From Escherichia coli (GTDB lineage Bacteria > Pseudomonadota > Gammaproteobacteria > Enterobacterales > Enterobacteriaceae): a stretch of 64,000 nucleotides of DNA. Shown here in pieces: positions 1 through 4,974 of the stretch (position 1 is the stretch's first letter; the number at the start of each line of letters is the position of its first letter). The stretch lies in assembly GCF_016026235.1 (NCBI RefSeq), contig NZ_CP065613.1, one strand, 5' to 3'. The notes under the pieces were generated by a model that was not told the DNA's origin, made no database searches, and saw nothing but the letters and a program-made list of their open reading frames with translations. Both the position numbers and the translations under genes were made by a program.

Positions 1-330
1 CGGAATCGCGTGTTCGACGTGCTCAACGGAAAGGCCAAACGCCACTTTTCCTTCAGCGATCATTTTGGCGATATGCTCGTCTTTCGCTTTAATGCCTGGT
101 TTGGCAATGGTGCAACTTTTGTTATAGCCAATCACCGCGATGGCAATCGACAATGCCGCGCCCGCACCGGTATTACACGCACCGATGTAGTAATCCAGTT
201 GCCCGGATTTCACTTTCATTGCCGCTTCCATGTCGTTGTGAATGAAAACTTCAAAACTGCCAGGAGCCGTCGCTTCAATGGTTTTTTTAATCTGCTCACG
301 CTGTAAGCCTGCAACGCCAATCTTTTTCAT
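1..330 (-). CDS. yhfU: YhfU-like small protein (DUF2620 family), 5' 110 codons; 3' end lies beyond the window start
   Basis: Hand translation of the minus strand from ATG at 328-330 runs uninterrupted to position 1 (MKKIGVAGLQREQIKKTIEATAPGSFEVFIHNDMEAAMKV...). It is missing from the ORF track only because no stop falls inside the window. It sits immediately downstream of php as in the E. coli yhf operon. Confidence 0.75.
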   Translation of the reverse strand, partial: MKKIGVAGLQREQIKKTIEATAPGSFEVFIHNDMEAAMKVKSGQLDYYIGACNTGAGAALSIAIAVIGYNKSCTIAKPGIKAKDEHIAKMIAEGKVAFGLSVEHVEHAIP

Positions 331-340
331 GAGTCTGTCC

Positions 341-1219
341 TTATTGGAAAAATTGAGAGGGAGTTTCACGTAACATCACATCCACATCGGCCTGACTGAA
401 TCCTGACTGGCGCAATTGCGGAATAAAGGTGGTCAATAAATAGTCATAGCCATAACCACCATTGGCTTTTAAATGGGAGCGGCGCGTAATATCCATCGAC
501 AGCATGACGCGGTTCAGCAACCCACGGTCACGTAGTGCGTGGAGCATCGCAATGCGCTTTTCGTCCGGGTAGTAACTGTTCTTACCAATGGTGTCGAACT
601 GCACGTACGCGCCGAGATCGATCATCTTCAAAATGTTGTCGAGGTTGTCTTTCAGATCGCAGTGACCAACGGTGACGCGCGAAAGATCAACTCCGTGGGC
701 TTGCAACAGAGCCAGTTGTTCCAGCCCCATGGTGCTGAACGACGTATGCGTGGAGATCGGGCGTCCGGTCTGGTTATGCGCCAGCGCAGCGGCAATAAAT
801 ACCTTCTCTTCCAGCGGCGTAATCTTTCCTTCGCTGGAGCCGATCTCCGCGATGATCCCGGCTTTCAGCTCCGTGCCATCGATACCCTGTTCAATTTCAT
901 CGACCATCTCCTGCGCCAGTTCCTGCACGCTGCGGGTCACCACATGTTCCGGGAAAAACGCATCCTGGTAATAACCAGTACAGGCCACCACGTTGATCCC
1001 GGTTTCGCGCATTACACCGAGCATAAATTGCGCATTGCGCCCCATGTAACGGTTGGTCATCTCAATCACATTACGTACACCCCGGGTCATCAGGTCGTTC
1101 ATCTCCTGGCAAATGAACGCATACTGATCAAGGCGGCAGTCCACGTTGTTTTTAAAGCCGGAGAGATCAATATGCAGATGCTCATGGGCCAGGGTGTAAC
1201 CCGTCGGATCAAAACTCAT
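341..1219 (-). CDS. php: phosphotriesterase-homology protein (amidohydrolase superfamily)
   Basis: 292-aa [25 protein letters not shown]... with the N-terminal H-x-H metal-ligand motif; length and sequence match my recollection of E. coli Php. Start overlaps the yhfW stop (ATGA-type coupling). Confidence 0.9.
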
Positions 1220-2442
1220 AGGGTGTCTCCTGCAAACCGGAGGGAGGAAAGAAAAGAGCGACCATTTTGTGGCGGTGGCGCACGGAAAAATTCACACACG
1301 GTAGCCCCCACATCAGAAAGCGTGGTGCGAACACCTAGCTGAGTAGCAGCCAAGCCTTGCTGATAAACCAGCACCGGCACGACTTCGCGGGTATGGTGGC
1401 TGTGACCGATTGTCGGGTCGTTACCATGATCAGCCATGACGATCAGGCAGTCATCTGGCTGCATCGCCTCAACCAGGAGAGCAAGATTACGGTCAACGAC
1501 CTGCAAACGTTCGGCATAACGTGCGACGTCTTCTGCGTGACCAGCGAGGTCGGTTTCCTGAATGTTGGTGCAAATAAACGCAGTCTGATGGGTGATAAAT
1601 TCGTCGAGGGTGATATCCATAATCCGCTGGCTATCCACCAGATTTTGCCAGCTCACGCCATAAGGATTGTTGACGATATCTGCCACCTTACCCACCAGCA
1701 CGGTTGGCACGCCTGCTTCATACAGTTTTTGTGGCACCTGCACTTTTTCATCGACGCCATAGCCCATATGCACGACCTGGAAACCGTTGTCATAAGCGCC
1801 AGAACGCGGCGCATTAATACCAATAAAGCGCCCTTCTTTGCTTTCTGCGGCATCGAGAATACGCTGACTGTCGGTTAACAGGCCGCCAAATGTAATGACC
1901 CGACCGACCTGTACCTGGTCACGCACGATACGACCAATTTTGATTGCGTCGTCAAAAGAGATCACAGAGAGATTGGCGGTAATGTTATAGACTTGGCCTA
2001 AATCCGCCTCGAGATTATCGCCAATCGCAACCGCCTGATTGACCTACAGAAATTGCAGTTCATCGCCACGGCGCTCCACCTGCCAACCGGCGGATACTAA
2101 TGCCTGCTCAACACGGTCAATCACATCGCGAAAGGGCATCCGCAGCGGCGGTAACGGGCGCGTGCCTAAAATTTCCTGATGCCCCATAAAGGTATCGCCA
2201 CCTTCATGTTGCAGCTCTGCCACGCCCCAGGTTGCGGAGTCTGACGGCTGCATATCGCCTGGCGCATAACCCAATGCGTTGATTAGCCCCAGCTTCTCCA
2301 GCGTTGGTAGCTGCAAATGCGGCAACTGGCTCAGGATGTGACCACAGGTATTCGCCCCGGCATCCTGCGGACGCACCAGCGTGACATCTTTCATTGCGCC
2401 TACGCCAAAGCTATCAATCACTAACACCACAAATCTCGCCAT
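1216..2442 (-). pseudogene. yhfW: yhfW (phosphopentomutase/metalloenzyme-like) interrupted by one in-frame TAG
   Basis: Two same-frame ORFs (2044..2442, 132 aa and 1216..1965, 249 aa) are separated only by TAG at 2044-2046. Reading through gives ...[41 protein letters not shown]..., 408 codons in all, which is the length I recall for intact YhfW. Confidence 0.8.
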
Positions 2443-3606: not shown

Positions 3607-3689
3607 CTTGTTGCCTCGTTTCTGTTCCTTGAATTAAATATTCATTTTTTTGAATATTTAGGTTGTGCGACGTGGATTTGTCGGGAGCT

Positions 3690-4052
3690 TCAAACCTCTT
3701 CGTTAGCAGCCATCCATAATCCATAAAGGTTGGCCAGTAAATAGCCTTCTTCACACGGGTTAACTTCCAGCGCGAATTCCTTCAACAACACCTGATGCAA
3801 TTGTAAAATGGCTGGCCAGTGAGTGGATTGTGCCAGCTCTGCCAGCAATTCGTCATCCAGTGGCTCTATTTCTTCACCACGGCGACTGCGCATCAGTGCA
3901 CTCGCCATATGTGTCATTGCCATCGTTCCTTGCTCACTGCGCACCGGCAGATGGCACTCTGTTTCCAGTACGTTGACGACCTGCATCATGCCTTTGCAGA
4001 TGTCCTTATCAATAACGCCTGCATCGCAAAGCAGGTTGAGTCTGGTTTCCAT
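3690..4052 (-). CDS. yhfY: PRD-domain-like small protein YhfY
   Basis: Track ORF 3690..4094 trimmed to the internal ATG at 4050-4052 (METRLNLLCDAGVIDKD..., 120 aa), so that it does not overlap yhfZ. Confidence 0.75.
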   Translation of the reverse strand: METRLNLLCDAGVIDKDICKGMMQVVNVLETECHLPVRSEQGTMAMTHMASALMRSRRGEEIEPLDDELLAELAQSTHWPAILQLHQVLLKEFALEVNPCEEGYLLANLYGLWMAANEEV

Positions 4053-4068
4053 ATCAGATGCCTTTCGT

Positions 4069-4974
4069 TTAATAACTGGGTTCCTGTTCCCCACTCACCA
4101 CGCGTTGTTGATGGGCAAGCAGGGCATGTTTATCAACAACTGCACGCAGCAGTTGTTGCATTGGGTAATCATCGACTCGCGTCAGGACCACGGCTTCGGT
4201 GGCCTGTAAAAATAGCGGATCGTCTGTGAGCGGCGTCGCCTCTAATCCCAGCATGGTCAGTTCGTTTTCCGCCACCACGTTCCAGATAACCGCATCAACA
4301 TCGCCTTTAACAATGCGTTGTAAACTCTCGTGATAGGAGAGATCGACTCGTTCCACATCACTATCGCCAAAAAAGACATCGGTCATGATTTTCTGATCCG
4401 CCGAACGGTTATCCAGCCCCACGCGCTTCACGTTTGCGGACTCGCCTTTACGGCAAATCAACTGGTGCTCGCCAACGTAGGTGTGCGGCCCCAACTCCAG
4501 CGCGAGGCATAAGCCTTTTTGCGTGAGATAACTTTCCGCCGCCAGTCGGGAAACCACCGCCATGTCATACACGCCGTTAAGTAAACACTCCACGCGAATA
4601 TCCGCGCCGCGCATATGCGCATAGTAAAAAGGAATGCCATCAAACTGGGCTTTCAATCCGCTCGCCAGGCCTTCGTACAAACGGGTATAGGGCAAGGGCA
4701 TCGCACATACCACGTTGTTGATATCCACATGACTCAGCAGCGCTTTGTTATCCATTTCGACCAGATAACTGCCATTGCGCCCACGGCGTTCAATCCGTAT
4801 CGCTCCGCTTGATTCCAGCGTTTTCAACGCGGCCTGCGTCAGGCCAACGGATGAACGGCATTCAGTTGCCAGCTCATCTATGGTTTTCAACCTATTACCG
4901 CATTTTTCACCCAACAAATAACGGGCCAGCGTCGTGATAACGACGCCTTCTTTTTTGATAAACGTTCGACGCAT
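4069..4974 (-). CDS. yhfZ: putative DNA-binding transcriptional regulator YhfZ
   Basis: 301-aa ORF MRRTFIKKEGVVITTLARYLLGEKCGNRLKTIDELATE... with an N-terminal HTH-like segment; first gene of the yhfZYXW-php-yhfU cluster. Confidence 0.85.
   Translation of the reverse strand: MRRTFIKKEGVVITTLARYLLGEKCGNRLKTIDELATECRSSVGLTQAALKTLESSGAIRIERRGRNGSYLVEMDNKALLSHVDINNVVCAMPLPYTRLYEGLASGLKAQFDGIPFYYAHMRGADIRVECLLNGVYDMAVVSRLAAESYLTQKGLCLALELGPHTYVGEHQLICRKGESANVKRVGLDNRSADQKIMTDVFFGDSDVERVDLSYHESLQRIVKGDVDAVIWNVVAENELTMLGLEATPLTDDPLFLQATEAVVLTRVDDYPMQQLLRAVVDKHALLAHQQRVVSGEQEPSY

Follow-up and report, generated by a model that had tools for sequence, protein, structure and literature searches.

The yhf operon of Escherichia coli: a conserved orphan cluster with a natural stop codon in yhfW and a possible role in phosphotransferase-linked breakdown of a nitrogen-containing, sugar-like compound

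Commonly, sugar operons of the phosphotransferase system (PTS) that employ PRD regulators, such as that for L-ascorbate (ula) or those of the bgl/lic type, bring together a permease with its small partner in the cytoplasm, a hydrolase that acts on a ring or ester bond, enzymes that handle phosphate, and a regulator that contains a PRD. A similar overall logic is found in the yhfZYXW-php-yhfUTS operon, whose promoter-proximal three quarters lie at the beginning of the window analysed here, a stretch of 64,000 nucleotides from Escherichia coli (contig NZ_CP065613.1 of assembly GCF_016026235.1); yhfT and yhfS, the remainder of the operon, are located outside of it. Gene set, gene order and strand are those of the E. 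coli K-12 operon b3383-b3376, with 98% identity at the DNA level, and the chromosomal place between trpS and yhfL/frl is the same in both. Unlike K-12, the window copy bears a premature stop codon, Trp133stop, in yhfW, and the adjacent frlABCDR genes are missing from the lineage of this strain. While this copy of the locus is ordinary, the locus itself is a well-known orphan. The RefSeq record of MG1655 describes all eight genes as 'putative' or 'uncharacterized' (putative hydrolase, mutase and pyridoxal phosphate (PLP)-binding protein; uncharacterized protein YhfT). Recent publications use similar terms, listing YhfS among 'uncharacterized proteins' (2024), YhfZ as a 'putative transcription factor' (2025) and YhfW as a 'putative mutase' that is 'uncharacterized or less studied' (2026). 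A crystal structure of Php has been available since 1998 and those of YhfX and YhfZ since the days of structural genomics, yet a substrate has been assigned to none of them, and yhf ranks with the larger operons of E. coli K-12 that are still fully orphan. The original prediction, made from the sequence of positions 1-4974 alone, had described a conserved, catabolic-looking yhfZYXW-php-yhfU cluster; gene content, gene order and family assignments were all borne out. It had also called the cluster functionally unassigned, which agrees with the full-text literature, as a search by gene, protein, b-number and family names led only to papers on genomes, screens or expression and to no biochemical assignment of a pathway, with papers in subscription journals mostly outside its reach.

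We propose, with a probability that we place at roughly 0.45, that the yhf products take up and break down, in connection with the PTS, a sugar-like compound that contains nitrogen, possibly with glucosamine-6-phosphate as the end point and under regulation by YhfZ and YhfY; the substrate is probably related to glucosamine. A genome scan with one genome per species was seeded with the DUF2620 motif of YhfU, the alignment of YhfT being too divergent to serve as a seed. DUF2620 was detected in 225 species-representative genomes, and 80 loci were kept and searched with the E. coli proteins. YhfU was present in all 80 kept loci, YhfT in 79, Php in 77, YhfX in 72, YhfZ in 70, YhfW in 67, YhfS in 55 and YhfY, which is under-detected, in 52. 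The set of eight genes recurs in shuffled order in Enterobacterales, Vibrio and Fusobacteriales, in several groups of Firmicutes (Bacillales, Lactobacillales, Clostridia and Erysipelotrichaceae) and also in Coriobacteriia, Entomospira (Spirochaetes) and Coprothermobacter. Since the gene set recurs and the catalytic residues are conserved across all of these lineages, the cluster is, as judged by comparative sequence data, a functional unit under selection and not a chance neighbourhood. The earlier description of the cluster as conserved extends to several phyla, with active-site residues retained. A functional tie to the neighbouring fructoselysine (frl) operon was considered and ruled out, frl being present in 3,300 of the 5,426 complete E. 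coli genomes versus about 5,070 for yhf, and absent from this strain and from all distant loci.

In a number of relatives, genes for PTS components and for amino-sugar metabolism adjoin the cluster, and this comparative context strengthens the catabolic appearance that had been noted from the E. coli genes. HPr and/or Enzyme I genes immediately follow yhfW in five loci from three distant lineages: in Alicyclobacillus (loci L074 and L075) and Paenibacillus (L081 and L082) both genes come next after yhfW and share its strand, and Enzyme I overlaps the end of yhfW in a Clostridiales genome (L079). PTS genes for EIIC or EIIA/B/C reside near the cluster in locus L005 as well as in loci of Vibrio and Entomospira, and the gene set includes a PRD protein with a conserved His as a further tie to the PTS. 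In four loci, which represent two families, nagB starts 13-26 bp downstream of the cluster, and the corresponding NagB proteins score 275-294 bits against TIGR00502 (cutoff 236.9), which identifies them as true glucosamine-6-phosphate deaminases. In addition, a gene with an amidase signature is inserted within the cluster in 12 loci, and the gene set includes two PLP enzymes, which we counted towards the amino-sugar lead. A protein of the DUF7916 family (PF25509, 342 bits) adjoins the cluster in three Vibrio loci (L058, L061 and L064) and in one of the Alicyclobacillus loci (L075); in Vibrio, genes for a lactose/cellobiose-type PTS EIIA, EIIB and EIIC accompany it in all three loci.

The individual enzymes of the cluster look active, as metal ligands, nucleophile and PLP lysine are conserved across phyla. 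The gene php (341-1219, minus strand) is intact and encodes the phosphotriesterase-homology protein of 292 amino acids, a member of the amidohydrolase superfamily as predicted originally (PF02126 PTE, 482 bits versus a gathering score of 22.4). Php also passes its own equivalog model NF007373 (650 bits, cutoff 486) and matches the PDB entries 1BF6/4LEF at E values of about 1e-195, and its residues H12, H14, E125, H158, H186 and D243 are shared by 95% or more of the cluster-linked homologues compared (34, from several phyla). Php shares its Pfam family, the binuclear-metal TIM barrel and the conserved ligands with PLL lactonases, with phospho-sugar lactonases of the Lmo2620 type and with mammalian PTER, is about equally distant from all three (E 1e-29 to 1e-38) and reaches the equivalog cutoff of none; its scores are 94 bits with the phospho-furanose lactonase model NF045706 (cutoff 630) and 97 bits with the organophosphate hydrolase (OPH) model NF041153 (cutoff 500). 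PTER has been identified as an N-acetyltaurine amidohydrolase and, according to the title of another paper, controls N-acetyl-beta-alanine; thus, the family of Php comprises amide hydrolases in addition to lactonases. A D68G exchange in Php was considered as a second lesion of the operon and ruled out, position 68 varying freely among homologues.

Similarly, YhfW and YhfX fall into the families to which they had been allotted from sequence, a phosphopentomutase-like metalloenzyme and an alanine-racemase-like PLP enzyme, respectively. The phosphopentomutase-like enzyme YhfW, of the alkaline phosphatase superfamily, is encoded at 1216-2442 (minus strand) in a single frame of 408 codons with one internal stop and is a pseudogene here. 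It matches PF01676 (Metalloenzyme) with 188 bits versus 24.3 and passes the NCBIfam equivalog with 739 bits (cutoff 254), and NCBI names the protein 'phosphopentomutase', an assignment that is putative. Like DeoB and the cofactor-independent phosphoglycerate mutases of PF01676, it has a core with two metals, a Thr/Ser nucleophile and the full set of ligand motifs, and the residues D10, Thr/Ser84, D298, H302, D338, H339 and H350 are conserved in 32 homologues across phyla. However, YhfW is only 29% identical to DeoB, the match comprising the core in two stretches, the cap (substrate) domain cannot be aligned, and the scores stay below the deoB equivalog cutoffs (TIGR01696, 147 versus 341 bits; NF003766, 184 versus 256 bits). 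Residues 387-390 of YhfW read Arg-Ala-Pro-Pro (window 1273-1284, minus strand) and are kept here, beyond the stop codon; distant homologues show good conservation of position 386 (Phe). A 2025 paper describes YhfW as the sole RAPP-containing protein of E. coli MG1655, RAPP being a motif of the translation-arrest type. The adjacent yhfX (2443-3606, minus strand, intact, 387 amino acids) encodes a fold-type III PLP enzyme that matches PF01168 (Ala_racemase_N, 80 bits versus 24.1) and PF21279 (YhfX-like_C). Its structural counterpart, PDB 4KBX ('uncharacterized protein YhfX', E 2e-256), is the protein itself. The PLP-binding Lys61 is invariant in 32 homologues, and with 28.7 versus 480 bits YhfX remains below the cutoff of the ornithine racemase model Orr (NF040742).

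Two proteins of the cluster are candidate regulators. YhfZ (4069-4974, minus strand, intact, 301 amino acids), the product of the first gene of the operon, combines HTH_41 with the ligand-binding-type domain YhfZ_C (PF14502 and PF14503) and passes the model NF041241 (YhfZ_full) with 373 bits (cutoff 260), in line with its prediction as a putative regulator; its C-terminal domain matches PDB 2OZZ. The prediction that YhfY (3690-4052, minus strand, intact, 120 amino acids) is PRD-like draws on its homologues, while the score of the E. coli protein itself is marginal: this stand-alone protein reaches only 15.8 bits against 23 with PF00874 (E 0.018), whereas cluster-linked YhfY homologues pass this model (39.9 bits; E 1e-9 to 5e-10). 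Residue His50 lies in the motif THLA.A..R and is conserved in four of four true homologues. Antiterminator-type control by YhfY was ruled out, as the protein has no RNA-binding domain and no convincing terminator was found in the 83-bp gap between yhfY and yhfX. Kinship with the EF_0829/AHA_3910 cluster was also considered. This orphan cluster presumably consists of a stand-alone PRD protein (TIGR03582), a small glycine-rich Cys-loop protein (Gly_rich_SFCGS) and DUF431x membrane proteins. The matches are weak (YhfY to TIGR03582, 26 bits; one DUF2620 member to PF14272, E 0.048), and since these scores are below the cutoffs the kinship is no more than a lead.

The small protein YhfU and the membrane protein YhfT form a module of their own, as some loci hold just these two without any of the enzymes. 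yhfU (DUF2620) occupies positions 1-330 on the minus strand, corresponding to codons 1-110 of 117, and its last seven codons and stop are cut off by the window edge. The predicted structure of YhfU adopts an RpiB-type fold with an invariant cysteine, Cys52, in an equally invariant loop (Cys-x-Thr-Gly-x-Gly). In E. coli RpiB, the catalytic set presumably comprises Cys66, Asp9/His10, His99 and C-terminal Arg residues. YhfU is about 30 residues shorter than the RpiB/LacAB isomerases with which it shares the fold, scores below the cutoff of PF02502 (13.9 versus 24.7 bits), and has the Asp9/His10 motif, His99 and the C-terminal arginine helix deleted or replaced, so that only the Cys-x-Thr-Gly-x-Gly loop is kept; unlike these isomerases, it is also consistently paired with the membrane protein YhfT. 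YhfT belongs to a small family (305 clusters at 50% identity among 1.84 billion representatives), and its two halves are homologous to each other, indicating internal duplication. The protein models confidently, but the model matched no solved structure, including solved EIIC, and its weak structural neighbours are secondary elevator-type carriers. In locus L009, yhfT is located beside a gene for an Orn/Lys/Arg decarboxylase, a link that was judged incidental, as the decarboxylase gene, judged by Bacillus gene order, resides in a housekeeping block with tmk. It might be speculated that YhfT and YhfU represent a previously unrecognised class of PTS-type permeases, with a membrane fold absent from the PDB and the invariant Cys52 of the RpiB-fold partner as candidate phosphoryl carrier, which would be fed by Enzyme I/HPr and sensed by YhfY. 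We regard this as rather unlikely; if true, the cluster would define a new PTS family and a new catabolic pathway of the amino-sugar type that extends from E. coli to Firmicutes and Coriobacteriia.

In the pathway that we favour, YhfT would import the compound together with its obligate small partner YhfU, whose invariant cysteine may act as a phosphoryl carrier. Php, as a binuclear-metal amidohydrolase, would open a bond of the ester, lactone or amide type, PLP chemistry at an amine-bearing carbon would fall to YhfX and, in loci that have it, to YhfS, YhfW would shift or remove a phosphate, and in some lineages the product may be handed to NagB. YhfZ would control transcription, the PRD protein YhfY would modulate this control by way of PTS-dependent phosphorylation, and Trp133stop in yhfW would interrupt the pathway in the strain studied here. 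The data show the gene content, its conservation including that of active sites, the folds, and the operonic HPr/Enzyme I and nagB of relatives, from which we infer all of the chemistry, the flow's direction and the substrate. A number of observations weigh against this scheme. HPr/Enzyme I are linked to the cluster in only five and nagB in only four of 37 distant loci; the E. coli cluster itself contains no PTS gene, ptsHI being located elsewhere on the chromosome. Furthermore, none of the loci yielded an EIIA, YhfT does not resemble any EIIC that is known, and the cysteine of YhfU is placed as in an isomerase and not as in EIIB. It is not obvious why a phosphomutase would be required after phosphorylation by the PTS, and the nearest characterised relatives of Php (lactonases, phospho-sugar lactonases and N-acetyltaurine hydrolase) are all only about 30% identical and suggest different kinds of activity. 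Finally, eight Yersinia species (L047, L049-L051, L053-L055 and L057) possess yhfZ-yhfY-yhfX-php-yhfU-yhfT with no trace of yhfW or yhfS and with a yhfX-php gap of about 60-170 bp, while Y. nurmii (L052) keeps yhfW. As these eight species retain the cluster, the steps of YhfW and YhfS are dispensable or replaced there.

Several other functions could be served by the same genes. The products might process a phosphorylated sugar lactone without an amino group, as in the route for L-ascorbate (Ula) or in that of the phospho-furanose lactonases of Listeria Lmo2620 type, in which case the phospho-lactone would be the substrate that Php hydrolyses, YhfW would serve to reposition the phosphate and the PLP enzymes would act in a side reaction. 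Lmo2620 and Bh0225 reportedly hydrolyse 5-phospho-sugar lactones, and Php shows similarity to the phospho-furanose lactonase model (E 7e-27) and to Lmo2620 itself (PDB 3PNZ, E 1.7e-32), although its 94 bits are far from the equivalog cutoff of 630. YhfW as a phosphomutase-type enzyme would fit such a route, as would the Cof-type HAD sugar phosphatase that is encoded after the cluster in locus L007. PF01182, the family of NagB, also includes 6-phosphogluconolactonases, but the linked genes score as NagB and not as Pgl (65-80 bits versus a cutoff of 124). Moreover, YhfX is retained in 72 of the 80 loci and its PLP lysine is invariant, which speaks for a substrate that carries an amine; we consider a route without amino group quite improbable. 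Alternatively, the cluster might salvage a compound derived from an amino acid, for example a D- or N-acyl amino acid, a lactam or some small amide, with YhfT/YhfU as an ordinary secondary transporter and the PTS acting on YhfY only. The activity of PTER on N-acetyltaurine and, as far as indicated by the title of the respective paper, its control of N-acetyl-beta-alanine are in accordance with this idea, and so are the likeness of YhfX to alanine racemase and, weakly, to ornithine racemase, the relation of YhfS to PLP enzymes of Cys/Met metabolism, the amidase-signature gene in 12 loci and the secondary carriers among the weak structural neighbours of YhfT. It leaves unexplained, however, why a phosphomutase-type enzyme is conserved in 67 of 80 loci, why nagB follows directly downstream in four loci, and why HPr/Enzyme I reside within the transcription unit; salvage of this kind appears unlikely to us.

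The stop codon in yhfW raises the further questions of whether it is real and whether the operon is still functional in E. coli. Codon 133 is an in-frame TAG (2044-2046, minus strand), the sole internal stop in the 408 codons. Window position 2045 is T here and C in both FDAARGOS_943, the closest genome (99.9% identical), and HCP4S3_I4, a typical E. coli; the change is thus TGG (Trp) to TAG. An error of sequencing or assembly, with yhfW being intact, would be compatible with a single-base difference (C to T at 2045) that is shared by no complete genome, a 41-mer bearing the stop allele being found in none of the 5,426 complete E. coli genomes. However, the 132-aa product is called on 187 contigs and the 249-aa product on 11-18 contigs, and the identical split of yhfW occurs in independent draft assemblies, among them an NCBI assembly that is 100% identical to the window over 9,965 bases (GCA_000805835.1; L012) and two assemblies from unrelated sequencing runs (L013 and L014). 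As the same two products recur in independent assemblies, the stop codon is genuine and not a read error, the chance of such an artefact being negligible, and the nonsense codon that had been noted in the sequence is confirmed. Seven catalytic residues are conserved in YhfW, and the truncation takes away five of them, all metal ligands (D298, H302, D338, H339 and H350). Compared to standard E. coli, the ratio of nonsynonymous to synonymous substitution rates (dN/dS) amounts to 0.07 in yhfW and lies within 0.02-0.22 in the other genes of the cluster, each of which is intact in this strain. Based on the low dN/dS, the intact neighbouring genes and the absence of the allele from complete genomes, the stop codon is a recent, rare and lineage-specific knockout. 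It might nevertheless be one step in the erosion of an operon that is a decaying, functionless relic in E. coli, as yhfW has been lost repeatedly. In the closest complete genome (NZ_CP065615.1; L001:5290-9233) the same operon has been inactivated independently: a 916-bp insertion sequence (IS) resides in yhfW at the position matching window 2097-2099, 50 bp off the stop, codon 133 is TGG, and an IS1 truncates yhfU and joins it to cysG, with the end of yhfU, yhfT, yhfS and yhfL deleted. Other truncations of yhfW occur in Shigella sonnei and S. boydii, in addition to the clean deletion in Yersinia. The cluster is also missing from about 6.5% of the complete E. coli genomes. The conservation of the region in the remaining about 93.5%, the low dN/dS values, the invariance of active-site residues across phyla and the intactness of all other cluster genes in this strain speak against a relic, which we consider very improbable. 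Within E. coli, window 1-9000 was recovered at 98.1-99.9% identity over at least 80% of the query length in 5,071 and yhfW in 5,074 of the 5,426 complete genomes; the intactness of genes was checked at the loci examined. The synonymous divergence (dS) of yhfW from typical E. coli is unusually high at 0.15, as opposed to 0.005-0.01 when php, gph and dam are compared likewise, which suggests that alleles have long varied, or have recombined, in this segment of the operon.

The consequences of the knockout may reach beyond YhfW. The start codon of php overlaps the stop codon of yhfW (ATGA at 1216-1219) and the start of yhfW abuts the stop of yhfX (TAAATG at 2440-2445), an arrangement that suggests translational coupling along yhfX-yhfW-php. 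Given the overlap of yhfW and php, expression of php, yhfU, yhfT and yhfS is probably lowered through lost translational coupling or polarity. The phenotypic weight of Trp133stop is uncertain, since clusters without yhfW persist elsewhere, and the stop codon matters only as a natural knockout and as a further case of repeated yhfW loss in host-restricted lineages.

The gene boundaries given here were taken from two annotated genome matches and the K-12 record. Upstream of yhfZ, an AT-rich stretch between the yhfZ ATG and the terminator-like hairpin of trpS (4975-5095, minus strand) presumably contains promoter and operator; promoter matches therein are at consensus level only. The hairpin (5117-5096) and trpS itself (5243-6247), which is located beyond yhfZ, are on the minus strand as well. 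Between the hairpin and the trpS stop, a G+C-rich imperfect palindrome (CCCCTCGCCCCTTTGGGGAGAGGGTTAGGGTGAGGGG) is located at 5160-5242 on the minus strand; it occurs as a single copy in the window, its fold energy is unremarkable (z -1.5), and it bears some resemblance to an E. coli intergenic repeat. On the other side, the assembly GCA_000805835.1, which matches window 1-9965, possesses intact yhfU, yhfT and yhfS; there, just left of the window start, yhfL and cysG come directly after yhfS (L012:11317-12931), with the whole of frlABCDR missing.

Taken together, the recurrence of the eight-gene set, the links to HPr/Enzyme I, nagB and amidase genes, the RpiB-type fold of YhfU and the lack of a solved match for YhfT are new. 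These comparative results narrow the search to PTS-dependent uptake, to a sugar-like substrate with nitrogen whose breakdown may lead to glucosamine-6-phosphate, and to a transporter pair without structural precedent, and they reduce an open-ended 'function unknown' to a short list of testable ideas. In comparison with the described PTS sugar operons of the ula and bgl/lic types, yhf encodes no recognisable EIIA, EIIB or EIIC, and its membrane protein YhfT matches no solved EIIC. In place of the classical EIIB fold, the small partner YhfU adopts that of RpiB, the PRD protein YhfY stands alone without a DNA- or RNA-binding domain, and the set is extended by two PLP enzymes.

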